From Sulfuricellaceae bacterium (lineage in GTDB: Bacteria; Pseudomonadota; Gammaproteobacteria; Burkholderiales; Sulfuricellaceae), in the NCBI GenBank assembly GCA_030690895.1, contig JAUYFQ010000062.1:1-40000 (forward strand): 40,000 nt of DNA. Direction: 5' to 3'. A program made the position numbers and the translations under genes. This document shows positions 5,313-40,000 of this stretch, piece by piece. Below the pieces are notes generated by a model. That model was not told where the DNA came from, searched no databases, and saw only the letters and a list, made by a program, of their open reading frames with translations. Position 1 is the stretch's first letter. Each line of letters begins with the position of its first letter.

Positions 5313-5481
5313 TTACCACGAAACACACGAAATGCACGAAAAATGCAAAAGCGTATAAACAGGTAGTCCATGCGACACCTTACCGAATGAGTGAAAAGAA
5401 AAATATAGCCAACAAATCGATTTTTTCGTGTATTTCGTGTATTTCGTGTATTTCGTGTATTTCGTGTATTTCGTGGTTAAC
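5313..5481. repeat. inverted short-period repeat array: CACGAAA units on the left arm, 5.8 copies of the tandem 9-mer TTTCGTGTA on the right arm
   Basis: Left arm CCACGAAACACACGAAATGCACGAAAAA (5316-5343). Right arm TTTCGTGTA x5 plus TTTCGTGG (5424-5476). The arms are reverse complements around a loop of about 80 nt. Confidence 0.85.
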
Positions 5482-20610: not shown

Positions 20611-23600
20611 TTAAGCCAGGGGTTTCTCTCCCCCCTCTTCGGCCAGCCTCTGATAGGCCCGGTAACGCTCCTCAATTTCCTGCTGGAAGACGGCCATGCA
20701 GGCATCGCCTTCCTTCTCGACATGTTTTAGCAAACCACGGAAACGCGGCTCGCTTTTGACCAGGTCGATGAAGGGGATGCTGGGGGCTTTTGAGTCCATG
20801 ACCAGCGGGTTCTTGCCTTCTGCGATGCGTCTTGGGTCGTGGCGGAACAGCGGCCAATGGCCGGAATCAACAGCCAGTTCCTGCTGGTGGTGCTGGTTGC
20901 TCATGTCGTAGCCGTGCTCGCCGCATGGGCTGTAGGCGATGATCAGCGAGGGGCCGTCGAAGGATTCGGCTTCCAGGAAGGTTTTGAGGGTATGGATGTC
21001 CTTTGCGCCGTAGGCGACATGGGCGACATAGACATTGCCGTAGCTCATGGCGATACGGGCCAGGTCTTTCTTGCCGGTGGCTTTTCCGTTGGCGGCGAAT
21101 TTGGCCGTGGCGCCGCGCGGGGTGGCTTTGCTGGCCTGACCGCCGGTGTTGGAATAAACCTCGGTATCGAGCACCAGAATATTGACGTTGCGCCCGGAGG
21201 CCAGCACATGATCGACGCCACCGAAGCCGATGTCGTAAGCCCAGCCGTCGCCGCCGATGATCCAGACGCTTTTCTTGACCAGGTTTTCCGCCAGGCTTTC
21301 CAGATTGCGCGCATCACTAATAAGGGACTCGCGTAGCGAGCCTGTGTCCCTCTCGCCTTTATGCCCTTCAGGGTACTCTGGGAGAGAGTTAGGAGAGAGG
21401 GAAATGATCGTCTTGAGTTTTGCCAATAGCTGCGCCACGCGCTCGCGCTGTTGCTGGATACCGGCTTCGCTGGACTGGTCGGCGGCGAGGATGGCGTCCA
21501 CCAGTTCTGTACCAAGCTGGTCTTTCATCTTTGTCGCCAGTTCGCCAGCATGTTCTGCATGTTTGTCGATGGTGACGCGGAAACCCAAACCAAATTCGGC
21601 GTTGTCCTCGAACAGCGAATTGTTCCAGGCCGGCCCGCGACCTTGCGTGTTCTGGCTATAGGGCGTGGTGGGCAGGTTGCCGCCGTAGATCGAGGAGCAG
21701 CCCGTCGCGTTGGCGACCACCATGCGGTCGCCGAACAATTGGGTAGCCAGGCGAATATAAGGCGTTTCTCCGCAACCCACACAGGCGGTGGGGAACTCGA
21801 ACAGCGGTTGCATCACCATGGCGCCCTTGATGGTGGAAATGCGCAGTTTGGTGCGGTCAAATTCCGGCAGTTTGAGGAAGAAGGCGAAGTTTTCCCGCTC
21901 TGTTACACGCAATGGCGCTTGTGGCCGCATTTCCAGCGCCTTGTGGCCGTCTTCCTTGCTCACCGCCGGGCAAATGTCCACGCACAGGCCGCAGCCGGTA
22001 CAGTCTTCCGGCGCAACCTGATAACTGACATGCATGCCTTCCTCGAACTCCTTGCCCTTGATCTGGATGTGCTTGAAGCTGGGCGGAGCGTCCTTGGCCA
22101 GTTCGGCATCAAATACCTTGGAGCGGATCGCGGTGTGCGGGCAGACGAAGGGGCATTTGCCGCAGTAGATACAGAGCGCTGCGTCCCATACCGGGATTTC
22201 CTGCGCCAGATTGCGCTTGTCGTAATGCGCGGTGCCGGTCGGCCAGGTGCCGTCGTTGGGCAGCAAGGACACCGGGATCAAATCGCCACGCCCGAGCATG
22301 ATTTCCCCGCTTACGCGGCGGACAAAGGCCGGTGCATTGGCCGGGATGTGGTTCTCCATTTCGAAGCAACTGGAAGACTGCTCGGGCACGTCCACCTGAT
22401 ACAGGTTGGCGAGGGTTTCGTCGATGGCTTTCCAGTTGGCTTCGACGATGGCCTGGCCTTTTTTGCCATAGGTTTTTTCAGCGGCGTATTTGATTTTCTC
22501 GATTGCCACGTCTTGCGGCAGCACGCCGGAAATGGCAAAAAAGCAGGCCTGCATGATGGTGTTGATGCGCGTCCCCATGCCAGTGGCGCGGGCGACGGCA
22601 TACGCATCAATCGTATAAAAGCGCAGTTTCTTGTCTATGATCTGTTGCTGCATCTTGCATGGCAATGTCGCCCAGACTTTATCAGGCGCAGCCGGTGAAT
22701 TCAGCAGGAACACCGCATTGTCAGCCGCGTTTTCGAGCATCTCGATGCGCTCGATGAAAATTGGCTGGTGGCAGGCGATGAAATTGGCCTCATCCGTGCC
22801 GATCAGGTAGCTGGAGTGGATGGGCTTGGGCGAAAAGCGCAGGTGCGAGGTGGTCATTGCTCCGGCTTTTTTCGAGTCATAGACGAAATAGCCTTGTCCA
22901 TAGAGTTCGGTTTCCTCACCCATGATCTTGATGGTGTTCTTGTTGGCAGAAACCGTGCCGTCCGAGCCCAATCCATAAAACAGCCCGCGCAACACGCCTG
23001 TCCCCGCATCGACGCGGTAGGCCGGGTTCCAGTCCAGGCTGGTGTGGGTGAGATCATCGATGATGCCGATGGTGAAATGATTCTTCGGTCTGTCCTTGCT
23101 GAGCTCGTCGAAAATGCCCGCGATCATGCCCGGTGTGAATTCCTTGGAGGAGAGGCCGTAACGACCGCCAACTACCGCTAACCCTCTCCCTAGCCCTCCC
23201 CCGCTCTTGTGCCCTTCAGGGTATGCGGGGGAGGGGACCATTGCTCCCTCTCCCGCCTGCGGGGGAGGGTTGGGGAGAGGGTTAATATTGGCGAGGGGGG
23301 TAGTGCTGGCGAAATTATCGAAAACCCCATGTTCTACCAGCGCAGTCACCACGTCCTTGTAAAGCGGTTCGCCATCTGCGCCAGGCTCCTTGCAGCGGTC
23401 GAGCACGGCAATTTTCCGGGTGCTGGCGGGCAGCACTTCGATCAGCCTCGAAGGGTCGAGAGGCCGATACAAGCGCACCTTGACCATGCCCACTTTCTCG
23501 CCGCGTGCGACCAGGTGTTGCACGGTTTCTTCCACCGCCTCGGCGCCAGAGCCCATGAGAATGATGATCCGCTCCGCGTCCGCCGCGCCTACATATTCAA

Positions 23601-24381
23601 ACAGCTTGTACTGACGTCCGGTGAGCTGGGCGAACTTGTCCATTTCATATTGCACGATGCCGGGCATCAGGTCGTAGTAGGCATTGACCGTTTCGCGTGC
23701 CTGGAAATACACGTCGGGGTTCTGCGAGGTACCGCGCACCACCGGGTGCTCGGGCGAGAGCGCACGGGCGCGATGAGCGCGAACCAGTTCGTCGGAAATC
23801 ATTTCGCGTACGGTTTCGATCGGCACTTGCTCGATTTTCGCCACTTCATGCGAAGTGCGGAAGCCATCGAAAAAATGCAGAATCGGAATACGGGCTTCGA
23901 GCGTGGCGGCCTGGGCGATCAAGGCCAGATCCTGTGCTTCCTGCACCGAGTTGGAACTCAGAAAGGCAAACCCCGTCCCGCGCGCGGCCATCACGTCGCT
24001 ATGGTCGCCAAAAATGGACAAGCCCTGCGCGGCCAGCGAGCGCGCCGCCACATGCATCACGAAAGGCGTCAGTTCCCCGGCAATCTTGTACATGTTGGGA
24101 ATCATCAGGAGCAAACCCTGCGAAGCGGTGAAAGTCGTCGCCAGCGCCCCGGTCTGGAGCGCGCCATGAATGGTTCCCGCCGCGCCTGCCTCGCTTTGCA
24201 GTTCGATCACTTCCGGCACAGTGCCCCACAGGTTTTTCTGACCCATGGCGCTCCAGGCATCCGAATATTCCCCCATCGGCGAAGATGGCGTGATCGGATA
24301 AATGGCGATAACTTCGTTGGTGAGGTGAGCGATGTAGGCGGCGGCTTCGTTGCCGTCAACGGTGACTGTGGTGGCTGACAT
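20611..24381 (-). CDS. nifJ: pyruvate:ferredoxin (flavodoxin) oxidoreductase
   Basis: 1256 aa with two ferredoxin-type clusters (CIYCGKCPFVCP, CTGCGLCVDICP), the TPP motif GGDGWAYDIGFGG and AGGAG upstream of the ATG. It carries two repeat-derived in-frame insertions. Confidence 0.95.
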   Translation of the reverse strand: MSATTVTVDGNEAAAYIAHLTNEVIAIYPITPSSPMGEYSDAWSAMGQKNLWGTVPEVIELQSEAGAAGTIHGALQTGALATTFTASQGLLLMIPNMYKIAGELTPFVMHVAARSLAAQGLSIFGDHSDVMAARGTGFAFLSSNSVQEAQDLALIAQAATLEARIPILHFFDGFRTSHEVAKIEQVPIETVREMISDELVRAHRARALSPEHPVVRGTSQNPDVYFQARETVNAYYDLMPGIVQYEMDKFAQLTGRQYKLFEYVGAADAERIIILMGSGAEAVEETVQHLVARGEKVGMVKVRLYRPLDPSRLIEVLPASTRKIAVLDRCKEPGADGEPLYKDVVTALVEHGVFDNFASTTPLANINPLPNPPPQAGEGAMVPSPAYPEGHKSGGGLGRGLAVVGGRYGLSSKEFTPGMIAGIFDELSKDRPKNHFTIGIIDDLTHTSLDWNPAYRVDAGTGVLRGLFYGLGSDGTVSANKNTIKIMGEETELYGQGYFVYDSKKAGAMTTSHLRFSPKPIHSSYLIGTDEANFIACHQPIFIERIEMLENAADNAVFLLNSPAAPDKVWATLPCKMQQQIIDKKLRFYTIDAYAVARATGMGTRINTIMQACFFAISGVLPQDVAIEKIKYAAEKTYGKKGQAIVEANWKAIDETLANLYQVDVPEQSSSCFEMENHIPANAPAFVRRVSGEIMLGRGDLIPVSLLPNDGTWPTGTAHYDKRNLAQEIPVWDAALCIYCGKCPFVCPHTAIRSKVFDAELAKDAPPSFKHIQIKGKEFEEGMHVSYQVAPEDCTGCGLCVDICPAVSKEDGHKALEMRPQAPLRVTERENFAFFLKLPEFDRTKLRISTIKGAMVMQPLFEFPTACVGCGETPYIRLATQLFGDRMVVANATGCSSIYGGNLPTTPYSQNTQGRGPAWNNSLFEDNAEFGLGFRVTIDKHAEHAGELATKMKDQLGTELVDAILAADQSSEAGIQQQRERVAQLLAKLKTIISLSPNSLPEYPEGHKGERDTGSLRESLISDARNLESLAENLVKKSVWIIGGDGWAYDIGFGGVDHVLASGRNVNILVLDTEVYSNTGGQASKATPRGATAKFAANGKATGKKDLARIAMSYGNVYVAHVAYGAKDIHTLKTFLEAESFDGPSLIIAYSPCGEHGYDMSNQHHQQELAVDSGHWPLFRHDPRRIAEGKNPLVMDSKAPSIPFIDLVKSEPRFRGLLKHVEKEGDACMAVFQQEIEERYRAYQRLAEEGGEKPLA
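21346..21404. repeat. intragenic palindromic repeat in nifJ (encodes SLSPNSLPEYPEGHKGERD)
   Basis: Hairpin TCCCTCTC...GAGAGGGA. The 25-mer at 21380-21404 is the exact reverse complement of 31891-31915 (hoxU/Y junction). Confidence 0.8.
23179..23284. repeat. composite intragenic palindromic repeat in nifJ (encodes NPLPNPPPQAGEGAMVPSPAYPEGHKSGGGLGRGL)
   Basis: Two nested hairpins with outer ends TAACCCTCTCC...GGAGAGGGTTA. The core matches the copies at 31925 and 38659 with about 3 mismatches. Confidence 0.8.
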
Positions 24382-28419: not shown

Positions 28420-28490
28420 TGATGAGTAATGGGTGATGGGTAATGAGTGATAAAAACCTCCGCCCATCACCCATCACCCATTACTCATCA
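28420..28490. repeat. heptamer-array palindrome (RGTRATG units) in the divergent region upstream of hoxF
   Basis: Perfect 22-bp inverted repeat TGATGAGTAATGGGTGATGGGT (28420-28441) and ACCCATCACCCATTACTCATCA (28469-28490), each arm built from tandem 7-mers. Confidence 0.85.
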
Positions 28491-28553
28491 ATCTGTTTTT
28501 GGTCATACTTCTGGAGTAAAGTTGAAACTCCAAATCTTAGGCGAGACCGAATA

Positions 28554-30383
28554 ATGGAATCCCGGGAAATTCAGAATATGGAGTCATTTCTTGCTTCGCT
28601 TCTCAAGCAGAGCGGCGAGGACTCCGGCTCCCTGCTGCAAATTCTGCGCGAGGTGCAGGATCATTTTCATTTCATTCCGCCTGAAGCCATCGAATGGCTT
28701 GCTGCACGGCTGGATGTGCCACGCAGCCGGATCGAGGGCGTGGCGGGGTTTTATTCCTTTCTGTCCTTGGCCCCGCAGGGGGAATACCGCGTCCTGTTCT
28801 CCGACAATATCACCGATCAGATGCTGGGCAAGCTGGAGCTGATGCAGTATTTCTGCAACAAGCTGTGGGTCGAGCCGGGCAAGGTTTCGGAAGACAATCT
28901 GGTAAGCGTGGACAGCACGTCCTGCACCGGGATGTGCGACCAGGGGCCAGCAGCGCTGGTGAATGGCTGGCCGCTGACCAATCTCGACCCCAACCGGCTG
29001 GACTTGATTGCCGAGCTGATCCGCGTACGCAAGCCGCTGGCCGATTGGCCGCCGATGTTGTTTGAGGTGCAGGACAAGATACAGAAGGCTGGCGTCTTGC
29101 TGGGCGAGGCGTTTGAGCCCGGAGCGGCAATCCGCGCCACGCTGGCGCGCGGCGCGATGGCGACGCTGGATGAAGTGGAACGCGCCAATCTGCGAGGACG
29201 GGGCGGAGCCGGGTTCAAGACCGCGTCCAAGTGGCGTTTTTGTCACGCTGCCATCGACGAGCGCGAGGGCAGCATGATCTGCGATGTGGGCGGCCTGCCG
29301 CAGCGGGTCATGGTGTGTAACGCCGACGAGGGCGAACCGGGGACGTTCAAGGATCGCGTGCTGCTCAATAGCTACGCCGATCTGGTGTTCGAGGGCATGA
29401 CGGTGGGTGCGCGGGTGGTCGGGGCGAGCCTGGGTTTTCTCTACCTGCGCGGTGAATACCGCTATCTGAAAGCGCCACTGGAAGCCGTACTGGCGCGTCG
29501 GCGCGAGAGCGGGTTGCTGGGGCGCTCGATTTTGGGTGAGGCAGGATTCGATTTCGATATTGAAATCCATCTGGGGGCGGGCGCCTATATCTGTGGCGAG
29601 GAATCGGCGCTGATCGAGTCGCTCGAAGGCCAGCGCGGACGGCCGCGCAACCGACCCCCTTTTCCGGTGACGCAAGGCTACATGGGCAGGCCGACGGTCG
29701 TGGATAACGTCGAGACGTTCGCCTGCGCCGCAAAAATTGCCGAGAAGGGCGGCGCATGGTTTGCCGCCATGGGCACGGCGCAATCGACCGGCAGCAAGCT
29801 GCTTAGCATCTCCGGCGACTGCGAGCGGCCCGGTATTTACGAATACCCGTTCGGGGTAACGGTAGAAGAAGTGCTACGCGATTGTGGCGCAAGTGATGCG
29901 CATGCCGTGCAGGTAAGCGGCCCTTCCGGAACGCTGGTTTCCTGGCAGGAATTCGGTCGCCGGATTGCGTTCGAGGATATTCCGACCGCCGGCGCATTCA
30001 TGGTTTTCCACCGCCAGCGCGAAATGTTTCTGGCAGCACATAATTTCACGAATTTTTTTGCGCATGAAAGCTGCGGTTTCTGCACCCCGTGCCGGGTCGG
30101 CACGCAATTACAAAAGCGCATCATGGACAAGATCGCCAGCGGTCACGGCACCCCGGCTGATCTGGAAGAACTCAAACGGCTGGGCGAGATTCTGGTCAAT
30201 ACCAGTCATTGCGGTCTGGGACACAGCGCGGCCAACCCCATCCTGGATACGCTGAAAAAATTCCCCGGCACGTTTGAGCGCAAACTCAAAAATCTGGCTT
30301 TTGAGCCCGCCTTCGACCTGGACGGCGCATTGGCAACCGCACGCCAGATTACCGGGCGAGATGATGAATGGGCGCATTTGTAA
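28554..30383 (+). CDS. hoxF: NAD-reducing [NiFe] hydrogenase diaphorase subunit HoxF (fused NuoE-like and NuoF-like)
   Basis: FMN site RGRGGAGFKT, NADH site GAGAYICGEESALIESLEG and 4Fe-4S site ESCGFCTPCRVG. Start taken at ATG 28554 because the track start (28443) lies inside the repeat. Confidence 0.88.
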   Translation: MESREIQNMESFLASLLKQSGEDSGSLLQILREVQDHFHFIPPEAIEWLAARLDVPRSRIEGVAGFYSFLSLAPQGEYRVLFSDNITDQMLGKLELMQYFCNKLWVEPGKVSEDNLVSVDSTSCTGMCDQGPAALVNGWPLTNLDPNRLDLIAELIRVRKPLADWPPMLFEVQDKIQKAGVLLGEAFEPGAAIRATLARGAMATLDEVERANLRGRGGAGFKTASKWRFCHAAIDEREGSMICDVGGLPQRVMVCNADEGEPGTFKDRVLLNSYADLVFEGMTVGARVVGASLGFLYLRGEYRYLKAPLEAVLARRRESGLLGRSILGEAGFDFDIEIHLGAGAYICGEESALIESLEGQRGRPRNRPPFPVTQGYMGRPTVVDNVETFACAAKIAEKGGAWFAAMGTAQSTGSKLLSISGDCERPGIYEYPFGVTVEEVLRDCGASDAHAVQVSGPSGTLVSWQEFGRRIAFEDIPTAGAFMVFHRQREMFLAAHNFTNFFAHESCGFCTPCRVGTQLQKRIMDKIASGHGTPADLEELKRLGEILVNTSHCGLGHSAANPILDTLKKFPGTFERKLKNLAFEPAFDLDGALATARQITGRDDEWAHL

Positions 30384-30583: not shown

Positions 30584-30847
30584 ATGCTTACCTTTGAGTT
30601 TGACGAATCCAAGAGCCAGGCAAATTTTTCCAAGCACGGCATCAACTTCGTTGATGCACAGCTTCTATGGAATGACCCGATGCTATTGGAAATCCCGGCA
30701 AAAACGGAAGAGGAGCCCCGATATCTGGTGATAGGGCTTATCAACGGAAAACACTGGTCAGCCATCTTCACCCACAGAGGCGTAAATATCCGACTGATTT
30801 CCGTTCGTCGGTCGCGAACTGAGGAGGTAGCACTCTATGAAAGCTGA
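30584..30847 (+). CDS. brnT: BrnT-family (DUF497) type II toxin
   Basis: 87 aa with the pattern FEFDESKSQANFSKHGINFVDA...LISVRRSR typical of BrnT. Overlaps the downstream antitoxin gene. Confidence 0.8.
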   Translation: MLTFEFDESKSQANFSKHGINFVDAQLLWNDPMLLEIPAKTEEEPRYLVIGLINGKHWSAIFTHRGVNIRLISVRRSRTEEVALYES

Positions 30848-31106
30848 AACATTCGATAAGCAGTTTGATGAAGGCGCAGATGTTACCGCCTCTCTGGATT
30901 TATCCAAGGCAAAGCGAGTTTTGCTGGAGCAAAAACGCGTTAACGTCGATTTCCCTACATGGATGATTGAATCGTTAGATCGAGAAGCGGGGAGGCTCGG
31001 AGTTACCCGGCAATCCATCATCAAGGTGTGGCTCGCCGAGCGCCTCGAAAGCTCCGCTCCTGGCACGCAACCCCAGCGGGTGTGCCGCGATGTGGCTCTT
31101 CGCTAA
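30837..31106 (+). CDS. brnA: BrnA-type CopG/RHH antitoxin
   Basis: 89 aa. The C-terminal RHH-like segment (VNVDFPTWMIESLDREAGRLGVTRQSIIKVWLAERL) is typical of BrnA. 11-nt overlap with brnT. Confidence 0.75.
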   Translation: MKAETFDKQFDEGADVTASLDLSKAKRVLLEQKRVNVDFPTWMIESLDREAGRLGVTRQSIIKVWLAERLESSAPGTQPQRVCRDVALR

Positions 31107-31168: not shown

Positions 31169-31906
31169 ATGAAGACTCTGAAAATAGACGGATGCGAAAT
31201 CCCCTTCACCACCGGGCAGACCATCATGGATGCGGCGCTGGCTGCCGGGGTTTATATCCCGCATCTGTGCCATCACCCCGAATTCAAGCCGCACGGTAGT
31301 TGCAAGCTGTGTACGGTGAAGGTGAACGGGCGTCATGTGTCGGCCTGTACCTTGCCGGTGGGCGAGGGTATGGAGGTGGAGAACAATAGTGCGGAACTGA
31401 ATGCCGATCGCCTTGCGCTGGTGCAGATGCTGTTTGTCGAGGGCAATCACTTGTGTCCGACTTGCGAAAAAAGCGGGAATTGCCAGCTCCAGGCGGTGGC
31501 CTACCATCTCAATATGTTGACCCCGCATTACAATCATTTTTACCCGCCGCGCGAGCTTGATGCCTCTCATCCCGATGTGTTCCTGGATCGCAACCGCTGC
31601 ATTTTGTGCGAGCTGTGTGTGCGAGCCAGTCGGGATGTGGATGGCAAGGAGGTGTTTGGCCTTTCCGGGCGTGGAGCCAGTTCCCGCCTGGTGGTGAATT
31701 CACCCAGCGGCAGGCTGGCCGATAGCAGCTTTGCTGTTACCGACAAGGCCGCCAGGGTGTGCCCGACCGGCGCGATTCTGATCAAGCGGGTGGGATTCAG
31801 CGTGCCGATTGGTGAGCGGATTTTTGATCGGCATGACATTAGTGAACTGGGCATTAGTGAACCGGGCGAAGGTGGAGGTCAACATGGCAGTTTCCCTCTC
31901 TCCTAA
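31169..31906 (+). CDS. hoxU: hydrogenase diaphorase iron-sulfur subunit HoxU
   Basis: A 2Fe-2S N-terminus (CHHPEFKPHGSCKLCTV) followed by 4Fe-4S motifs (CPTCEKSGNC, CILCELCVRAS). The last codons and the TAA stop lie inside a repeat element. Confidence 0.9.
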   Translation: MKTLKIDGCEIPFTTGQTIMDAALAAGVYIPHLCHHPEFKPHGSCKLCTVKVNGRHVSACTLPVGEGMEVENNSAELNADRLALVQMLFVEGNHLCPTCEKSGNCQLQAVAYHLNMLTPHYNHFYPPRELDASHPDVFLDRNRCILCELCVRASRDVDGKEVFGLSGRGASSRLVVNSPSGRLADSSFAVTDKAARVCPTGAILIKRVGFSVPIGERIFDRHDISELGISEPGEGGGQHGSFPLS

Positions 31907-32561
31907 CTCTCTCCCGGGGGGTAGCCCCCTCCCCAACCCTCCCCCGCAAGCGGGAGAGGGGGCAATGGTCAAGGGCGCTTGTTCTGATTTGAGGGACGCA
32001 GGCTCGCTTTGCGAGTCTCATATTAGGCCTAAAATCCGTATTGCCACCTGTTCGCTGGCGGGCTGCTTCGGCTGCCACATGTCCTTGCTGGATATTGATG
32101 AAAAACTGCTCGATCTGCTTGAGCTGGTCGAATTCAACCGTAGCCCGTTAACCGATATCAAACACTGCGGGCCGTGTGATGTCGGTATTGTCGAAGGCGG
32201 GGTGTGCAATGCCGAGAATGTCCACGTCCTGAAGGAATTTCGCAAGCACTGCAAGGTGTTGGTCGCCATGGGCGCCTGCGCGATTACCGGCGGCCTGCCC
32301 GCCATGCGCAACAATATTGACCTGTGGGACTGCTTTCAGGAGGTGTATCTGTACGAAGGCGGGCTGGAGGGTGGACAAATTCCAAATGACCCCGAGCTGC
32401 CCCTGCCGTTCGACAAGGTTCACCCCATCTATGAAGTGGTCAAAGTGGATTATTTCCTGCCCGGCTGTCCGCCCTCTGCCGATGCGATCTGGCACTTCTT
32501 GACCGAATTGCTGGCGGGCAGGGAACCAGGCGTGACCGGGAAGCAATTACATTTTGATTAG
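31884..32561 (+). CDS. hoxY: [NiFe] hydrogenase small subunit HoxY
   Basis: The conserved core starts at KIRIATCSLAGCFGCHMSLLDIDE. ATG 31884 has GGAGG 6 nt upstream. An alternative ATG at 31965 lies inside the repeat. The N-terminal ~27 aa are repeat-encoded. Confidence 0.85.
   Translation: MAVSLSPNSLPGGSPLPNPPPQAGEGAMVKGACSDLRDAGSLCESHIRPKIRIATCSLAGCFGCHMSLLDIDEKLLDLLELVEFNRSPLTDIKHCGPCDVGIVEGGVCNAENVHVLKEFRKHCKVLVAMGACAITGGLPAMRNNIDLWDCFQEVYLYEGGLEGGQIPNDPELPLPFDKVHPIYEVVKVDYFLPGCPPSADAIWHFLTELLAGREPGVTGKQLHFD
31888..31977. repeat. composite palindromic repeat at the hoxU/hoxY junction
   Basis: Module TTTCCCTCTCTCCTAACTCTCTCCC (31891-31915) plus a core at 31925-31977 that is 52/53 identical to 38659-38711. 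Confidence 0.85.
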
Positions 32562-32633
32562 GGATGTTGGCTGTTTCCGCACCCCTTATGTGTCCAGCGA
32601 TTCTGGAAATTACTGGGGCGTTTCTTGTTGTTT

Positions 32634-32646
32634 AACGCGTCGCGTT
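32634..32646 (+). promoter_or_regulatory. putative HigA operator upstream of higB
   Basis: Perfect palindrome AACGC-GTC-GCGTT, 14 nt upstream of the higB ATG. The same half-sites recur at 33054-33066. Confidence 0.45.
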
Positions 32647-32659
32647 ATATCATGCAGCC

Positions 32660-32938
32660 ATGATTCAGTCATTCAAGTGCAGCATTACGCAGGCGCTGTT
32701 TTCCGGGCAGGCTGCTCCACGCTTTATAAATATCCGTTCTGTTGCTGAACGAAAATTGCAAATGTTGCACCGGGCAACGCGTTTGGATGATTTGCGTATC
32801 CCGCCTCAAAATAGGCTGGAAAAGCTGAAAGGTACTCGCAAGGCGCAATGGAGTATCCGCATCAATGACCAATGGCGCATATGCTTTCGTTTTGAAGATG
32901 GGAATGCTTTTGAAGTTGAGATCGTGGACTACCACTAA
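32660..32938 (+). CDS. higB: HigB-type (RelE/ParE superfamily) toxin
   Basis: 92 aa with IRINDQWRICFRFEDGNAFEVEIVDYH, typical of plasmid-maintenance killer HigB. Confidence 0.8.
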   Translation: MIQSFKCSITQALFSGQAAPRFINIRSVAERKLQMLHRATRLDDLRIPPQNRLEKLKGTRKAQWSIRINDQWRICFRFEDGNAFEVEIVDYH

Positions 32939-33046
32939 CGGGCATGGCGAATTGCCGCCCCAAATAATGTACCCATGGGCATAAAAAACATCGATTCGCC
33001 ATGCCCGTTTCCCCCACCCCTGCCCTCCCCCGGTGGGAGAGGGGGA
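32939..33046. repeat. two repeat hairpins in the higB-higA spacer
   Basis: Hairpin CGGGCATGGCGAATTG (32939-32954) with CGATTCGCCATGCCCG (32992-33007), then a degenerate GC-rich core CCCCCACCCCTGCCCTCCCCCGGTGGGAGAGGGGG (33011-33045). Confidence 0.65.
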
Positions 33047-33084
33047 CGAAGGCAACGCTTCGCGTTGTTTCACGTTAAAAGGAA

Positions 33085-33399
33085 ATGATTGTGACTGTGA
33101 CCAATGGCATGCGCCCGATTCATCCGGGAGAAATTTTGCGCGAGGAATTCATGATCCCTCTGGGACTGTCTGCCAACGCGTTGGCGCTCGCCCTGCGCGT
33201 ACCTGCGCCACGCGTTAATGACATTGCGCGAGAGCGACGCGCGATCAGTGCCGATACCGCTCTACGCCTGTCACGCTATTTTGGCACCAGCGCGGAATTC
33301 TGGCTGGGCTTACAAGCTGACTTTGACCTGAAAATCACTCAGGCTGAAAATGGCATCAAAATTGAACAGGATATTGTCCCCATGCCCGTTGCGGCATAG
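33085..33399 (+). CDS. higA: HigA-family HTH antitoxin
   Basis: Contains HPGEILREEF...GLSANALALALRVPAPRVNDIARERRAISADTALRLSRYFGTSAEFWLGLQ, classic HigA/VapI. Alternative ATG at 33109. Confidence 0.85.
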   Translation: MIVTVTNGMRPIHPGEILREEFMIPLGLSANALALALRVPAPRVNDIARERRAISADTALRLSRYFGTSAEFWLGLQADFDLKITQAENGIKIEQDIVPMPVAA

Positions 33400-33412: not shown

Positions 33413-34897
33413 ATGACATTTGAACTGGAAACTGCCGCCCACCCGGAAAACCTCAGACGCGTGGTGATCGAGCCCGTGACCCGCGTGGAAGGGCACGGAA
33501 AAGTCACCCTGCTGATGGACGAGAATAACCGCGTGCACCAAGCGCGCTTTCATATTGTCGAATTTCGCGGTTTCGAGAAATTCATCCAGGGGCGGCCATA
33601 TACCGAGGTGCCGGTGCTGGTGCAGCGCCTGTGCGGGATTTGCCCGGTCAGCCACCATCTGGCGGCGACCAAGGCGATGGACCAGATTGTCGGCGCAACG
33701 ATCACCCCCAGTGCAGAAAAGCTGCGCCGCCTCATGCACATGGGGCAGATTTTGCAATCTCACGCCCTGCATTTCTTTTATCTGGCCTCGCCGGATTTGT
33801 TGTTCGGTTTTGATGCCGAGGTGGGGCAGCGCAATATCGTGGGTGTGGCAACTGCTTTTCCGGACATCGCCCGCCAGGGCATCGCCCTGCGCAAGTATGG
33901 GCAGGAAATCATTCGTCTGACGGCTGGCAAGCGCGTCCATGGCACGGGCTCCATCCCCGGCGGGGTCAACAAGAATCTGAACCGCGCCGAGCGGGATGGT
34001 TTGCTGGCCGAGATCGACCAGATCATTGCCTGGAGCCTGGCGGCGGTGCAAATGGTGAAAAAACTCTTCAGTGACCGGCCAGAGTTTTATACCGGCTTCG
34101 GCTTCTATCGCTCCAGCTTCATGAGCCTGGTGCGCCCGGATGGCGCGCTGGACTTGTACCACGGCGGCTTGCGCGCCCGCGATGAGCACGGACAGGATAT
34201 TTTCGACCATCTCGATACCGACCGTTACTGGGACGTCATCCACGAAGAAGTCAAACCCTGGTCGTACATGAAATTCCCCTTCATCCGCTCGCGTGGGCCG
34301 GAGGAGGGCTGGTATCGGGTGGGACCGCTGGCACGGGTGAACAATTGCGATTTCATTCCCAGTCCCCTGGCAGAGCAGGAACGCCAGGTTTTCAAGCAAG
34401 CCGGCGATGCCACTCATGCCACGCTGGCCTACCACTGGACGCGCATGATAGAAATGTTGCACTGCGCCGAAGTCATCCGCGAGCTGTTGCTGGACGACGA
34501 CCTGTCCGGGGACGATCTGGTCAATACCGGCGAGCGTCAGTTGCGCGGCGTCGGGGTGATCGAAGCGCCACGCGGCACCTTGATTCACCACTACCGCATC
34601 AATGAAGACGAACAGATCGTGCGCGCCAACCTGATCGTTTCCACTACCCACAACAACCATGCCATGAACGAAGCCATTCGCCAGGTGGCGCTGCAATATC
34701 TGGATGGACAGGAACTGACCGAAGGCCTGCTCAACCATATCGAAGTCGCCATCCGCGCCTTCGACCCCTGCCTCTCCTGCGCCACTCATGCGTTGGGAAA
34801 AATGCCGCTGGAAGTGGAGTTGCTGGATGCCGCCGGAACGCAGGTCGGTCGTCTGGTGAAAAACTCTGAAGAGCCGGACTGGTGCGCCCCATCCTGA
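33413..34897 (+). CDS. hoxH: [NiFe] hydrogenase large subunit HoxH
   Basis: N-terminal Ni-binding RLCGICPVSH and C-terminal DPCLSCATH followed by a cleavable extension. ATG 33413 lies 13 nt after the higA stop; the track start 33350 would overlap higA. Confidence 0.92.
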   Translation: MTFELETAAHPENLRRVVIEPVTRVEGHGKVTLLMDENNRVHQARFHIVEFRGFEKFIQGRPYTEVPVLVQRLCGICPVSHHLAATKAMDQIVGATITPSAEKLRRLMHMGQILQSHALHFFYLASPDLLFGFDAEVGQRNIVGVATAFPDIARQGIALRKYGQEIIRLTAGKRVHGTGSIPGGVNKNLNRAERDGLLAEIDQIIAWSLAAVQMVKKLFSDRPEFYTGFGFYRSSFMSLVRPDGALDLYHGGLRARDEHGQDIFDHLDTDRYWDVIHEEVKPWSYMKFPFIRSRGPEEGWYRVGPLARVNNCDFIPSPLAEQERQVFKQAGDATHATLAYHWTRMIEMLHCAEVIRELLLDDDLSGDDLVNTGERQLRGVGVIEAPRGTLIHHYRINEDEQIVRANLIVSTTHNNHAMNEAIRQVALQYLDGQELTEGLLNHIEVAIRAFDPCLSCATHALGKMPLEVELLDAAGTQVGRLVKNSEEPDWCAPS

Positions 34898-35340
34898 TTT
34901 TTGGCTACGGCAACCCGAGCCGGGGTGACGATGCCATTGGCCCGCTCCTGATCGAGCAACTGGCCAGGCTGGACTTGCCGGACGTGGATCTATTGACGGA
35001 TTTCCAGCTCCAGGTCGAGCATGCGCTGGATCTGCGCGGGCGCGAGCGGGTGTTGTTTGTCGATGCCAGTTATGTCTGCCAAGACCCTTATGAGCTGACC
35101 CGCATCCAGCCTGCGGCTGACGCCAGCTATACCTCCCACGCCATGAGTCCTGCGGCAGTGCTGCAAGCCTGTGCCGAATTGTATGGTGAGGAACCCGAGA
35201 GCTGGATGCTGGCAGTGAGGGGCGTCTCGTTTGAGTTGGGCGAGCCTTTGAGCGTCGAGGCTACAGGCAGTCTGGATGCGGCTGTTACGAAGGTTTTGGT
35301 GTGGCTTGACGGTGACTGTGCGCAGAATGAAGTAAAATGA
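34882..35340 (+). CDS. hoxW: hydrogenase maturation endopeptidase HoxW
   Basis: The motif GYGNPSRGDDAIGP is typical of HybD/HoxW proteases. The GTG start overlaps the hoxH end by 16 nt. Confidence 0.85.
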   Translation: MRPILIFGYGNPSRGDDAIGPLLIEQLARLDLPDVDLLTDFQLQVEHALDLRGRERVLFVDASYVCQDPYELTRIQPAADASYTSHAMSPAAVLQACAELYGEEPESWMLAVRGVSFELGEPLSVEATGSLDAAVTKVLVWLDGDCAQNEVK

Positions 35341-36578: not shown

Positions 36579-39500
36579 TTAACCCGCCACCACTCGAACC
36601 CTGCCTTGCTCATCCCGCACAGCCCGCCCCAGCGCCACCAGGGTTTCCAGCAGTTGCGGCAAGCGTTTTTTCCATGCGCCCTTGCCGCTGAAATGCTCGG
36701 CCAGCTCGGACTCGGAAAGCGGCTTGCCTGCGCTGGACAAAATCTGGGCGATGGCGGCCATTTGGGCGGGGAGTTCGGCGGGCCAGGGGGATTTGCTTTG
36801 CGCATTCTCCCCCTCGCCGGTATTTACCCCCTCCCCAACCCTCCCCCGGAGGGAGAGGGGGCTATCCATTGGGGTTTCAGCGTTTGTACCATTAAGTTGC
36901 TGCTGTTGCGGGGCTGCCTGGGGATGCTGGTAGGCGGGGCGCAGCCAGCGGATTTGGCCTTGGGCTTCCTCGGCGGCGCGTTCGGTGTTGAGGGCGACGA
37001 GTCTTTCGAGGATAGTTTCGGCCACGCCCCCTTCTCCTCCGGCCTGGTAGGGCGCAATAACCAACGGGCATTGCGCCGGAGGCATCTGGTGCAATGCGCC
37101 ACGCTTATTGCACCCTACAATATCCAGGTCGCTCCAGCCATAAGCTTGCAGCACCGCCGCATCAAGGTCGTCGTGGAAGGATTTGAGCACGGCGACCAGG
37201 CCTTTTTCGTAAATCGCCTGCTCCTTCGCGTTTCGGTCTGCGCCAGTTCTCAGTTTTTCCAGCACGTTATATAGCCCGGTCAGCGTTAACTCTGGATGCT
37301 CGGCCAGCACGCGCTTGCGGTGGGCGTCGAGCTGTTCGGCGAGAGAGCGAATGCGAGCAGATAAAACAAATCGCTCTTGTCCATTGCCCCCTCTCCCTCC
37401 GGGGGAGGGTTGGGGAGGGGGTAAGTCGGGGAAAGGGAAAGTCTCGAAGCAGCGGGATTTGTTGTAGCGCGGCCTGTCTTCCAGCGTGCCACCTTGCGCC
37501 AGCGCCCAGATGACATGCACCTGGCTCGACAGCACGCCCAGCCAATAAGCATCATCGAGCGCGATGCAAATCAGTTTGTTGTCCGGCGCAATTTCAGCAT
37601 CCAGAAACTGGAAAACTCGGTGCTTGGCGGTTTCGACGGTGGCGATGTAGCGTGGCAGGCCGGTGAGCGTGGCACGCATGACTTTGCGCGGCTCTCCGAA
37701 AATCCACCAGTTGTCGCGGTAACTTGCCCGGTTGTTGAGGTCACGTTCGGGTTTTACCCGTTCCAGCACCCATTGATAGGTGGCTGGCCAGCGGCGACGC
37801 ACTTCGTCTGCATCATGGCCGTAGAGATCGATCAATTTGACGCCGCGCGGTCGGTCGGTGAGGTCGCGACCATTGCGGTAGGGCTTGATTGGCGCATCGG
37901 TTTCGAGTTGCGCAGCTTGTTCCGGCGTGACGATAAAACCCGAACCAAACAACTGAAAACCACGATTCGCAAGCCCTTCATTGGCCCGCAACCCCAACGC
38001 CCCCGCCACATTCGCCCCAATGCTCAAGTCGGCATGAATCACGCCAACACGCTGTGCCAGCGTCACTTCCAACCCCTCGCCGCTGCCGCTTCGCTCGTCG
38101 GTCACGGTGAGCAGGCATCCCTGCTCCCCTCTCCCTCCGGGGGAGGGGGTGGGGGTGGGGGAGGGGGAGGGGGAGGGCACGCCAACCGTCATCGCAATCC
38201 GAACCGCCGCGCCGCCGCTGTTTTCCACCCAGGGATGGTCGGGGATGGCGAAGGCCAGGTGTAGCATCTTCACCCTCTCCCCAACCCCTCTCCCGTCAAG
38301 GGAGAGGGGTTTTTCTCCCCTCCCCCCTCGCGGGGGAGGGGCTGGGGGAGAGGGGTTTAAGGTCGGAGAGGGAGATAAATACGCTTCCAGCACGCGGCGG
38401 TTGAAGGTCTGGCGCAGGCTGTTGGTGGTGATGAAGCCAAAGCGTTGCGCCTTGCCTGCTGTGACCAGCGCGGCGGCCTTGTGCCACCAGAACATGACCA
38501 GGTCGGCGGATTCCGGCACCTCCGGGTAGGCGGCGCGCAAGGCGTCCACGTAGGCGTCGCCCAGCGCGGCACGCATGGCGGATGCGCCGATGAAGGGCGG
38601 GTTGCCGATGATGTAGTCGGCTTCGGGCCAATCTGCTGGTTTACCCTTGCCTGCTTTACCCCCTCCCCAACCCTCCCCCGCAAGCGGGAGAGGGGGCAAT
38701 GGTGAAGGGCGATGGGTTTTATCTGGGGGCAATGGTGAGGGGCGATTGTTTAGAACGGCGTCACGGCATTCGATGTTGTGAAAATCGCGCAGCACCGGTT
38801 CGGGCGGGAGGCTGGCGCCTTTTGTGCGGAAGTGCCATTGCAGGTGGCCGATCCATAGCACCAGTTCGGCGATGGCGGCGGCGCGGGGGTTGAGTTCGAT
38901 TCCAAGAAACTGGTGCGGATCGACGGTCAGTCCTTCGGCGTCGAGACTGCCGGAGGCGCCGAGGTCTTGCAGCAAATCCAGCACTTCGCCTTCGAGCCGC
39001 TTCATGTGTTCCATAGTGACGTAGAGGAAGTTGGCCGAGCCGCAGGCGGGGTCGAGTACGCGAATGTTGCATAGCCGGTAGTGGAAGGCGCGGATTTCCT
39101 GTTGCGCTTCTTTTGCGCGGCCTTCGCGGTCGAGCAGCAGGGCGGCGGCCTGGATGTTGGCCCATTCTGCGCGTAGCGGTTCCATCACGGTGGGGAGCAC
39201 CAGGCGTTCGACGTAGGCGCGGGGGGTGTAGTGCGCGCCGAGGCTGTGGCGTTCGCTGGGGTCGAGGGCGCGTTCGAGCAGGGTGCCAAAAATGGCGGGT
39301 TCGACCAGCGTCCAGTCGGCATGGGCGGCGCGTAACAAAAGGGTGATTTGTTCGCGGTTTAACGCTAGCGCGGTTGGATTTTTGAAGAACTTGCCGTTGA
39401 AGCGCGGCAGTTTGGCGCGCAGGGCGATGGAGAAACCGCCGCTGTCCATTTTTTGCCACAGTTCGCTGACCATGGCTTCAAATTGTTCCGGCGCGTCGGC

Positions 39501-40000
39501 CAGACTTTCGAGCAGGGCGGTGAAGCCGCCTTTGCCGTCTTGTCTGGGTAGCAGGGCGACATCTTCGGCGAACAGGGTGAACAGGCAGCGGGTGAGGAAT
39601 CCGGCGACTTCGTGGGTGTCGTGCCCGGCCTGTTCGAGCGATTTGGCGAGCAAAGCGAGGTCGGCGGAGATTTTACGGGTGACTTTTGCGGAGATGCGGG
39701 TGGGGTCGAGCGCCATGGGGTCTAGCCAGACCTGGCGCAGGCGTTCGCGGATTTCAGGCCGGTTCAGGTCGGGTATGCGGATGCGGTGGCTGCCAGGGTC
39801 GGGATAGGGCAGGTATGCGCCGCCACTGCGGCTGAATTCGCTGTATAGCTCGATGACATCGCCGACATCGATGATGATCAGAAAGGGTGGGCGGGTTTCG
39901 TCAGATGGCAAGCTGCGGGCGTAGTTTTGCGCTTGGCCATGGGCGCCGCGCAGGGCGATTTTAGCACCCTGAGTTTCGCGGTTCTGCTGCACGCCTTTGG
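36579..40000 (-). CDS. MmeI-like (type IIL/IIG family) N6-adenine DNA methyltransferase; 5' end outside the window
   Basis: SAM motif I VLDPACGSANFL, motif IV NPPFIGA, and a helical spacer FLTRCLFTLFAEDVALLP as in the MmeI family. The frame stays open to the window edge, so the GTG at 39992 is probably internal. Five repeat-derived insertions. Confidence 0.8.
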   Translation of the reverse strand, partial: KGVQQNRETQGAKIALRGAHGQAQNYARSLPSDETRPPFLIIIDVGDVIELYSEFSRSGGAYLPYPDPGSHRIRIPDLNRPEIRERLRQVWLDPMALDPTRISAKVTRKISADLALLAKSLEQAGHDTHEVAGFLTRCLFTLFAEDVALLPRQDGKGGFTALLESLADAPEQFEAMVSELWQKMDSGGFSIALRAKLPRFNGKFFKNPTALALNREQITLLLRAAHADWTLVEPAIFGTLLERALDPSERHSLGAHYTPRAYVERLVLPTVMEPLRAEWANIQAAALLLDREGRAKEAQQEIRAFHYRLCNIRVLDPACGSANFLYVTMEHMKRLEGEVLDLLQDLGASGSLDAEGLTVDPHQFLGIELNPRAAAIAELVLWIGHLQWHFRTKGASLPPEPVLRDFHNIECRDAVLNNRPSPLPPDKTHRPSPLPPLPLAGEGWGGGKAGKGKPADWPEADYIIGNPPFIGASAMRAALGDAYVDALRAAYPEVPESADLVMFWWHKAAALVTAGKAQRFGFITTNSLRQTFNRRVLEAYLSPSPTLNPSPPAPPPRGGRGEKPLSLDGRGVGERVKMLHLAFAIPDHPWVENSGGAAVRIAMTVGVPSPSPSPTPTPSPGGRGEQGCLLTVTDERSGSGEGLEVTLAQRVGVIHADLSIGANVAGALGLRANEGLANRGFQLFGSGFIVTPEQAAQLETDAPIKPYRNGRDLTDRPRGVKLIDLYGHDADEVRRRWPATYQWVLERVKPERDLNNRASYRDNWWIFGEPRKVMRATLTGLPRYIATVETAKHRVFQFLDAEIAPDNKLICIALDDAYWLGVLSSQVHVIWALAQGGTLEDRPRYNKSRCFETFPFPDLPPPQPSPGGRGGNGQERFVLSARIRSLAEQLDAHRKRVLAEHPELTLTGLYNVLEKLRTGADRNAKEQAIYEKGLVAVLKSFHDDLDAAVLQAYGWSDLDIVGCNKRGALHQMPPAQCPLVIAPYQAGGEGGVAETILERLVALNTERAAEEAQGQIRWLRPAYQHPQAAPQQQQLNGTNAETPMDSPLSLRGRVGEGVNTGEGENAQSKSPWPAELPAQMAAIAQILSSAGKPLSESELAEHFSGKGAWKKRLPQLLETLVALGRAVRDEQGRVRVVAG
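36805..36873. repeat. intragenic GC-rich palindromic repeat, methyltransferase locus A
   Basis: Core CCCCCTCCCCAACCCTCCCCCGGAGGGAGAGGGGG (36827-36861), translated antisense as SPLSLRGRVGEGV. Confidence 0.75.
37381..37425. repeat. intragenic GC-rich palindromic repeat, methyltransferase locus B (reverse orientation)
   Basis: CCATTGCCCCCTCTCCCTCCGGGGGAGGGTTGGGGAGGGGGTAAG, translated as LPPPQPSPGGRGGNG. Confidence 0.8.
38120..38177. repeat. intragenic repeat hairpin plus G5-run tract, methyltransferase locus C
   Basis: CCCCTCTCCCTCC/GGGGGAGGGGG followed by (G5N)n to 38177; encodes PSPSPSPTPTPSPGGRGEQG. Confidence 0.75.
38268..38378. repeat. intragenic double palindromic repeat, methyltransferase locus D
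   Basis: Hairpins at 38273-38309 and 38315-38355; encodes SPSPTLNPSPPAPPPRGGRGEKPLSLDGRGVGERV. Confidence 0.75.
38637..38752. repeat. intragenic GC-rich palindromic repeat, methyltransferase locus E
   Basis: Core at 38659-38711 (52/53 identical to 31925-31977) plus a direct duplication of GGGGGCAATGGTGA(A)GGGCGAT. Lies between the DAVL motif and WPEADYIIGNPPF. Confidence 0.8.

Follow-up and report, generated by a model that had tools for sequence, protein, structure and literature searches.

Introduction

In-frame insertions of short palindromic repeats into genes are known from the Rickettsia palindromic elements (RPEs) and from other MITEs (miniature transposable elements with inverted repeats), according to one report (PMC10969869). 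In this and a second source, RPEs are described as lying in frame in unrelated housekeeping genes, with one frame kept open, adding 20-50 residues to a host protein that is itself kept (PMC10969869; PMC3733652). Here we describe a repeat family that falls into the same functional class, and in particular one composite copy at the junction of hoxU and hoxY, the genes for the diaphorase Fe-S subunit and the small subunit of a [NiFe]-hydrogenase. It lies in a 40,000-nt stretch of DNA (positions 1 to 40,000 of contig JAUYFQ010000062.1; hereafter the window), which is sequence of a Sulfuricellaceae metagenome-assembled genome (MAG) and comes from an NCBI contig of 51,844 bp. Comparison with repeat-free relatives indicates that the insertion remodelled the junction: the stop codon of hoxU is now a TAA carried by the element, and hoxY probably still starts at the ATG that it used before the insertion.

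Repetitive extragenic palindromes (REPs) offer a second comparison. Many intragenic REPs of the GTAG/CGTC type are N-terminal, and it is uncertain for these on which side of the repeat the start codon lies (Di Nocera et al., 2013; PMC3733652). REP clusters of Thauera encode 43-82 aa, REP dimers nest in longer palindromes, and DNA-repair genes of the uvrC and uvrD type are frequent REP hosts (PMC3733652).

The family described here resembles RPEs in its behaviour. Like RPEs, it is found in frame in unrelated genes, namely nifJ, hoxY, an MmeI-like gene and the genes for GltB, IleRS, RNR (ribonucleotide reductase), UvrC, a UvrD-like protein, MoeA and a Mur ligase. Unlike RPEs, its hosts are free-living Sulfuricellaceae and other Nitrosomonadales-type betaproteobacteria, and the hox copy lies in the overlap of two genes, where it alters a stop and a start region together. 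Compared with GTAG REPs, its stems are longer, rich in G/C homopolymers and mosaic, and a GTAG tag is not clear. With the REPIN/RAYT systems (Bertels and Rainey, 2011; PMC3116915) it shares imperfect palindromes, inverted doublets (for example at 23179-23284 of the window and at the Sideroxydans loci L028 and L051), a large number of copies and the absence of target-site duplications. REPINs are overwhelmingly extragenic (PMC3116915), whereas about nine of the about ten copies in the window are inside open reading frames (ORFs): two in nifJ, one in hoxY and about six in the MmeI-like gene. A last comparison is with coupled overlapping genes of the ATGA or ATGxxTGA type. The ancestral hoxU/hoxY overlap of 8-14 nt is of this kind, and a sister strain has re-created a TAA-N-ATG arrangement; in contrast, the overlap in the window is 23 nt and its stop codon is provided by foreign DNA. 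The insertion mechanism is ordinary for this class of element, and in-frame repeat insertion as such is already known.

The hoxU/hoxY junction with and without the insertion

Empty-site alleles were taken from the cluster that contains the window HoxY, and their DNA was recovered as L087, L088 and L089. They lack the repeat; at the nucleotide level their hoxY core is 88-91% and their hoxU 89-92% identical to that of the window, and the closest repeat-free relatives read GGTCATGGCGACGCCTAAAATC at the junction. In L087 and L088 the hoxU frame reads ACG GGA GGG GGT CAT GGC GAC GCC TAA, which gives HoxU ...TGGGHGDA*, and the hoxY frame reads ATG GCG ACG CCT AAA ATC CGC, which gives HoxY MATPKIR. 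L089 has AAT GGC TAA and ATG GCT AAA CTT in the two frames, for HoxU ...ERKNG* and HoxY MAKLR. The hoxU stop of these alleles falls inside hoxY codons 4-5 or 2-3. Remoter relatives have ATGAGTGA or ATGAATGA overlaps, with the ATG within GGxGGx..CATG as at position 31884 of the window. By alignment, the ancestral arrangement is a 14-nt overlap, in which the hoxU stop was built from the T of a hoxY Pro codon and the AA of a Lys codon.

Where the empty sites of L087 and L088 read GGTCATGGCGAC|GCCTAAAATC, the window retains the flanks CATGGC (31883-31888) and GCCTAAAATC (from 32027). Between them 138 nt were gained and 3 nt (GAC) lost, a net change of 135 nt or 45 codons. A sequence-only reading that preceded this analysis had hoxU ending within the repeat, and this is confirmed: the ORF runs from 31169 to 31906 and stops at the element-borne TAA at 31904-31906 (forward strand), within CCTAACTC. 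As that reading also held, the same triplet is read through in nifJ, as CCT AAC, which is the hoxY frame from ATG 31884. The former hoxU stop (TAA at 32030-32032, forward strand, inside hoxY CCT AAA) is preceded by the element TAA in the hoxU frame; it lies 126 nt further downstream and is no longer reached. The HoxU tail changes from HGDA* in the empty sites to HGSFPLS* in the window, where hoxU runs 6 codons beyond the shared ATG; the final six sense codons (GSFPLS) and the stop are element or junction sequence. The alignment of related operons that had been proposed as a check thus bears the idea out, and because the empty-site relatives differ in both the HoxU tail and the HoxY leader we conclude from the comparison that the insertion remodelled the junction and that the element TAA is the hoxU stop in the window.

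ATG 31884-31886 stands behind GGAGG at 31874-31878 (forward strand), an ancestral Shine-Dalgarno (SD) sequence within the HoxU Gly-Gly-Gly codons; the spacer, first counted as 6 nt, is 5 nt, and relatives, L087 among them, have GGGAGGGGGTC-ATG with the same spacing. ATG 31884 is at the start position of the relatives, since the upstream hoxU Gly-Gly-Gly-(Gln)-His codons align. Further upstream, a 15-bp tandem duplication at 31837-31866 (forward strand) had been noticed correctly; Tandem Repeats Finder gives it period 15, 2.1 copies and 93% matches. It lies in the variable HoxU tail (ISELG/ISEPG), is present in the sister strain (L001, below) and is missing in L087-L089.

Structure of the inserted element

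The insertion is a composite nested palindromic repeat of 138 nt at about 31889-32026 (forward strand, as are its parts), the 5' limit being ambiguous from 31883 to 31891. The outer element, A, has its 5' arm at 31891-31915 (TTTCCCTCTCTCCTAACTCTCTCCC, read as SLSPNSLP in the hoxY frame), a 25-mer that is 100% identical to nifJ 21404-21380. Its 3' arm at 31991-32026 (GAGGGACGCAGGCTCGCTTTGCGAGTCTCATATTAG, encoding RDAGSLCESHIR) shares 86% identity with nifJ 21352-21317, fits the family consensus GAGAGGGACGcaGgCTCGCTtCGCGAGTTTCAcGTTAa and contains a hairpin at 31991-32020 (-11.1 kcal/mol). A GGGGGG linker separates the 5' arm from the nested B module (31922-31990, encoding SPLPNPPPQAGEGAMVKGACSD), which consists of a REP-like hairpin at 31925-31963 (-18.6 kcal/mol) and a tail. 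The repeat goes well beyond a chance resemblance: the 25-mer recurs without a mismatch, and the window gave three matches to the hairpin core where 100 shuffles gave none. Other B copies of the window are at 23236-23284(-), 38655-38711(+), 37376-37421(-) and 36827-36862(+). The ...GCAATGG end, which the sequence-only reading had attributed to the other full copies, was found in four of the eight B copies that were aligned (one each in hoxY and nifJ, two in the MmeI-like gene) and in a partial copy at 38725. A MAFFT alignment that paired the SD and ATG of the empty site with the element sequence GGGAGAGGGGGCAATGG was rejected, as GGGAGAGGGGGCAATGG occurs in every B copy and the upstream hoxU codons align with 31869-31888.

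One forward frame alone is open through the element, in phase with ATG 31884 and the HoxY core; the other two contain stops. All modules read in one frame in nifJ and in hoxY from 31884 (SLSPNSLP, PLPNPPPQAGEGAMV, RDxGSLxESxI). Read from ATG 31884, hoxY has 46 repeat-encoded residues between Met-Ala and Pro-Lys-Ile-Arg, and the conserved core follows directly. The earlier figure of about 27 residues was too low, since the element runs to 32026 and does not end near 31966-31977.

The 5' junction is ambiguous within CATGGC, a string that occurs both in the element and at the empty site. The family has a CATG of its own 11 nt before CCCTC in 26 of 80 metagenome copies, the exact offset of ATG 31884, and one metagenome locus (L168) has CCATGGCAGTTT, identical to the window. 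The ATG had been placed 4 nt before the element; with a CATG of the family consensus at that very offset, it is not clearly outside it. The shared CATGGC hints at microhomology, and on the aligned sequences the ATG occupies the ancestral position whichever way the 5' junction is placed. An E-value search of Rfam over 31500-33200 returned no family, and a promoter and terminator scan found nothing within the insertion, with counts at the level of shuffled sequence.

The same insertion in a sister strain

An identical composite insertion occurs at the same site in a sister strain, for which the sources are L001 (JGI 3300044950), a JGI/NCBI contig of 36 kb and one Logan contig; JGI 3300059473 is another sample with this population. 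Where the window reads GGT CAA C ATG, L001 reads GGC TAA C ATG: its hoxU stops a single nucleotide ahead of the ATG (HoxU ...GGG*), so that the element TAA goes unused there. The proposal that the repeat supplies the hoxU stop thus applies to the window and not to L001, whose TAA C ATG is a classic coupling arrangement at the equivalent of ATG 31884. Since every outgroup has a sense codon where L001 has this TAA, the window state is probably the earlier one, and the aligned alleles suggest that the window shows the immediate post-insertion state and the TAA of the sister strain a later change.

Over the insertion (31890-32025 against L001 1373-1508) the two strains have 0 differences in 136 nt, while the flanking hoxU and hoxY differ by 4.4% and 4.3% (P about 0.002). 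The sole differences near the insertion are the adjacent pair 31879-31880, which creates or removes the hoxU stop. Possible reasons for the identity between strains are recent recombinational spread, conversion from other copies, or constraint.

Other insertions at hoxU/hoxY junctions

Three Sulfuricella loci carry an independent but related PLP..AGEG repeat after HoxY codon 4 (MSEQ), of 90, 78 and 81 nt (L006, 2900-3000; L084, 1501-1600; L086, 1253-1355), and L085 is the corresponding empty allele. The differences in insert length are multiples of 3 throughout, including 9 nt upstream of any internal start, as would be seen if translation of the insert began at the upstream ATG. Sideroxydans and Gallionellaceae MAGs have a REPIN-like inverted doublet that separates the hoxU stop from the hoxY start (L028, 2800-2990; L051, 2790-2990; L045, about 2829). 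It is flanked by ATGAAT or ATGA on either side, the former overlap having been duplicated and split, so that both genes keep their own signals. These alleles mark the hoxU/hoxY junction as a place where repeats land recurrently. The 80 metagenome element loci contributed no further hox or nifJ alleles.

Translation start of hoxY

The hoxY frame is open from 31809 to the stop at 32561 on the forward strand. From ATG 31884 (31884-32561) it encodes 225 aa plus stop, with the N-terminal AVSLSPNSLPGG; the element-borne, in-frame ATG 31965-31967 (forward strand) is M28 of that product (MVKGACSD...) and as an alternative start gives 198 aa. We consider it probable that hoxY starts at ATG 31884, possibly together with ATG 31965. 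Both codons had been put forward when the element was first suggested to provide a start signal for hoxY; ATG 31884 is the better supported of the two. NCBI annotates the window contig with the 225-aa HoxY, starting at ATG 31884. When an in-frame ATG occurs nearby in the 80 related genomes, it precedes K-[ILV]-[RK] by only about 1-14 residues (mostly 2-10), and solved structures align from HoxY residue 49-51. Between 31965 and the HoxY core there is no canonical start with an SD; TTG 31989 and ATT 32022 were considered as starts and rejected, having no SD (-4.6 and -2.5 kcal/mol).

Several observations weigh against a start at ATG 31884. The JGI annotation of the sister strain begins at ATG 31965 (P0001, 198 aa). 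The anti-SD match of ATG 31965 (duplex -11.1 kcal/mol) almost equals that of ATG 31884 (-12.3 kcal/mol). In the predicted fold, GGAGG pairs with CCCUC of the element (-10.9 kcal/mol locally) and has an unpaired probability of about 0, and because of this predicted pairing free initiation at ATG 31884 may be weak and coupling to hoxU may be needed. The junction fold is itself no more stable than shuffles (z = -0.85), and only the local pairings are usable. Given that ATG 31965 is in phase, the phase of ATG 31884 with the core is expected by chance 1 in 3, and the window and the sister strain are too close to test conservation of the frame between the two ATGs. The AlphaFold model of HoxY has a mean pLDDT (predicted local distance difference test) of 63.5, which is moderate confidence.

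The observations in favour of ATG 31965 can be combined into a rival account, in which this codon is the working start and GGGAGAGGGGG its SD, HoxY is a 198-aa protein with a 22-residue repeat-encoded leader, and ATG 31884 is dead or minor, or both are used. As the sequence-only reading had noted, ATG 31965 is in frame behind the SD-like purine run GGGAGAGGGGG (31952-31962), and its spacing to GAGG is 5 nt. It is used by both the JGI and the Logan gene calls for the sister strain, the parallel Sulfuricella insertions likewise have an in-frame GAGGGGG-N5-GTG, and the SD of ATG 31884 is the one predicted to pair with the element. However, the SD-like run is also the 3' arm of the B hairpin. The run and ATG 31965 each have an unpaired probability of about 0.1 in that hairpin (about 90% paired), and they lie beyond the reach of ribosomes that end hoxU; the distance from the hoxU stop to ATG 31965 is 59 nt in the window and 82 nt in the sister strain. 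The equivalent of ATG 31965 in nifJ is an internal Met of the repeat, present in half the B copies only, whereas ATG 31884 and its SD have been kept upstream at the ancestral position, in phase and open. In the parallel clade, moreover, in-frame indels upstream of the internal GTG argue for translation from the upstream start. We regard ATG 31965 as the working start as rather unlikely.

On the preferred reading, a non-autonomous palindromic repeat (A, with the REP-like B in its loop) integrated into the 14-nt overlap, and translation of HoxY would still begin at ATG 31884, with the ancestral GGAGG as its SD. This start is probably coupled to translation of hoxU: ribosomes terminating hoxU at 31906 would open the GGAGG/CCCUC pairing predicted for the naked mRNA, and would stop short of the hairpin in which the SD-like run and ATG 31965 are masked. 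HoxY would then carry a 46-residue N-terminal insert, rich in Pro, Gly and Ser and probably disordered. In the AlphaFold model, residues 1-49 have a pLDDT of 46-49 and lack secondary structure, the first strand being formed by residues 51-57, and tentatively the N-terminus may be a floppy appendage. The insertion seems to have been tolerated rather than useful. The start, the coupling, the disorder and the tolerance are read from sequence and models, and the tryptic peptide AVSLSPNSLPGGSPLPNPPPQAGEGAMVK would be specific to the product of ATG 31884.

A more ambitious account would have the element recruited as a translational-coupling device, with the identity between strains arising from selection or conversion and the 5' arm tying HoxY synthesis strictly to the ribosomes that finish hoxU; we think this improbable. 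Equally doubtful is a second part of the same account, that the built-in CATG lets the family integrate at gene starts by microhomology. Element A brings an ATG and an ORF of its own, but its role as a 'portable start cassette' was rejected, the phases of downstream long ORFs being 28/16/23 (frames 0/1/2; 77 distinct A copies), which is not significant.

Integrity of the hox genes

Between the window and L001, hoxY differs at 23 of 678 nt. A single one of these is non-synonymous (R48K, in the final base of the element), and the 22 differences in the hoxY core are all synonymous. Against the repeat-free L087, hoxY of the window has 46 nucleotide and 3 amino acid differences. In hoxU, 31 nucleotide and 6 amino acid differences were counted. 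These comparisons indicate that the insertion-bearing genes are under purifying selection.

This bears on the idea that the hox operon is decaying, the repeat and two toxin-antitoxin cassettes having inactivated or uncoupled hoxY and the open frame being a recent accident. The operon is indeed interrupted by brnTA (30584-31106) and higBA (32660-33399), the neighbourhood is rearranged in the sister strain, and an insertion without differences between the strains is compatible with a very recent event. However, all hox ORFs of the window are intact, none of the 22 core differences alters an amino acid, and the same element family is in frame in essential genes (GltB, IleRS, RNR, UvrC, MurE-like), which makes decay very improbable. 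An assembly artefact, by which a metagenome assembler mis-joined the repeat into the junction, has a negligible chance: the contig is from a MAG and the Logan contig L002 breaks exactly inside the repeat, but at least three independent assemblies have the same composite insertion in frame at the same site; it is seen in the NCBI MAG contig, in two JGI samples and in one Logan run, and its flanks differ by 4.4%.

The element family in the window and in metagenomes

In nifJ (20611-24381, reverse strand; pyruvate:ferredoxin oxidoreductase, PFOR, 1256 aa) both insertions are in frame. One, at site 2, is an element A at 21317-21404 (reverse strand), the loop of which contains the 18-nt module C (YPEGHK). 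The element is missing in a 93%-identical sister protein (P0121, 1219 aa), which is also without module C and whose empty site has IQSDD instead of IDSAD; a Sulfurimicrobium NifJ (P0122, 84% identity) carries element A there as well, with no module C. The other is a B-type inverted dimer at 23179-23290 (reverse strand), which reads PLPNPPPQAGEGAMV in the hoxY-equivalent frame. The insertions were placed by close homologues, and distant PFOR structures could not fix the exact position. On these comparisons the nifJ elements are polymorphic and nested on a short time scale, and the architecture of the element is, from its aligned copies, nested and mosaic.

The MmeI-like gene is a type IIG restriction-modification ORF at 36579-39992 (reverse strand; 1137 aa) with MmeI_N, hel, Mtase and TRD domains. 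About six repeat copies, of either orientation, leave it uninterrupted, and one of them adjoins the NPPF methyltransferase motif. Between higB and higA, a B-type copy (32996-33050) starts with GCCATGCCCGTTTCCCCC, the leader of the canonical A 5' end. The aligned copies suggest that A and B are subfamilies with a common 5' end.

JGI metagenome contigs were scanned with a 22-mer of the A 5' arm, which gave at least 120 exact-match stretches, and 80 loci were analysed. Their A consensus is about 87 nt long, (aa.)TCGCCATGaCCGTTT-CCCTCTCTCCTAACTCTCTCCC-GCAaGCGGGaGAGAGGGACGcaGgCTCGCTtCGCGAGTTTCAcGTTAa, and other modules are nested in the A loop at seven loci (L102, L114, L117, L139, L149, L163 and L169). 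An element was counted as intragenic if it lay in an ORF of at least 300 codons with at least 100 codons open upstream and at least 80 downstream of it. By this rule, 11 of the 80 loci are inside long ORFs, in the SLSPNSLP frame, and the intragenic A copies all share the peptide SLSPNSLP...(A/E)GERDxxSLRE. Ten of the 11 ORFs were scanned with Pfam, and all ten are bona fide genes with full domain architectures. The hosts include oligopeptidase M3, UvrC, the glutamate synthase large subunit, a UvrD/AddA-like helicase, a Mur ligase, an MMPL transporter, ribonucleotide reductase, MoeA (on two contigs, at the same site) and IleRS. In the two moeA loci (L143, 3834-5150; L163, 714-2222) element A is at the same position, and one of them has a B-like module in the loop. 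At L137 the element is within the intein region of the ribonucleotide reductase gene.

Inverted doublets occur in the window as well: the arms 23179-23204/23259-23284 are 92% complementary, and 38273-38309/38318-38354 also pair. The hox copy is not a doublet but a single B nested in A. At the tag position before the C-rich arm the hox copy has GGTAG (GGTAGCCCCC), other B copies have TTAC, TTAA or TTTC, and Sideroxydans has GGGGGTAGA. Neither consensus end (TCGCCATGaCCGTTT... and ...GCGAGTTTCAcGTTAa) is the inverted copy of the other, and there are thus no terminal inverted repeats. Nor is there a target-site duplication at the two sites compared: the filled hox site, set against the empty one (GGTCATGGCGAC|GCCTAAA), shows the 3-nt loss, and the nifJ site of element A (site 2) shows a replacement. 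The intergenic Gallionellaceae copies do have ATGAAT or ATGA at either side. Assignment to the classical MITEs was rejected on both counts, terminal repeats and duplications at these two sites. No Y1 transposase was found among the Pfam-scanned ORFs of the 40-kb window. Judged by sequence, the hairpins, the inverted doublets and the lack of duplications fit elements of the REP/REPIN type, with a GTAG tag that is not clear-cut. A literature search for the peptide and DNA motifs of the element returned nothing relevant; the family is apparently undescribed, and apparently abundant in sulfur- and iron-oxidising betaproteobacteria.

Host region

Products identical to those of the window are deposited at NCBI as HoxY MDP2828311.1, HoxU MDP2828310.1 and NifJ MDP2828304.1. 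The nearest GTDB species are Sulfuricella MAGs, with a HoxY identity of 85-86%. On the forward strand, hoxF (28443-30383) is followed by the brnT/brnA toxin-antitoxin pair, hoxU, hoxY, the higB/higA toxin-antitoxin genes, hoxH (to 34897) and a gene for a probable maturation protease (34882-35340). Two type II toxin-antitoxin cassettes thus lie within the operon of the window: brnT/brnA separates hoxF from hoxU, and higB/higA separates hoxY from hoxH. In the sister strain a different 135-aa ORF lies 3' of hoxY, and there is no hoxF directly upstream of hoxU.

HoxU (245 aa) has the Pfam domains Fer2_4, NADH-G_4Fe-4S_3 and Fer4_15. It matches the NCBIfam HoxU model NF005745 at 9.6e-53 and 179 bits, below the equivalog cut-off of 333; the alignment spans residues 2-207 and leaves the C-terminal tail outside the model. 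Its identity as HoxU is consistent with the domain set and the hoxF-U-Y-H context. HoxY matches Pfam Oxidored_q6 (PF01058) at 2.8e-31 and the solved structure 5xf9_C at 1.9e-67 over residues 49-224, and its GCFGCH cluster motif is invariant.

Two further repeats were seen. At the 5' end of hoxF (28420-28490) there is a strong inverted repeat, TGATGAGTAATGGGTGATGGGTAATG, with 26-nt arms that are 96% complementary and a 19-nt spacer. The true hoxF start is likely to be near 28554, downstream of this repeat, which might serve as an operator or a terminator. A 9-bp unit, TCGTGTATT, is repeated in tandem in about 6 copies at 5417-5479.

Implications

In this locus one insertion replaced the stop of the upstream gene and preserved the start region of the downstream gene, and it would have lengthened the N-terminus of the downstream product. 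Filled, empty and 'repaired' alleles, the last with a new TAA, are available in close relatives and amount to a natural experiment on overlapping genes. The insertion also explains why annotations of HoxY disagree (225 aa against 198 aa), and start calls beside such repeats need care. For hydrogenase biology, the 46-residue leader would stand on an Fe-S cluster subunit, with the first cluster ligands about 10 residues after the insert, and this HoxY may carry an unusual N-terminus.

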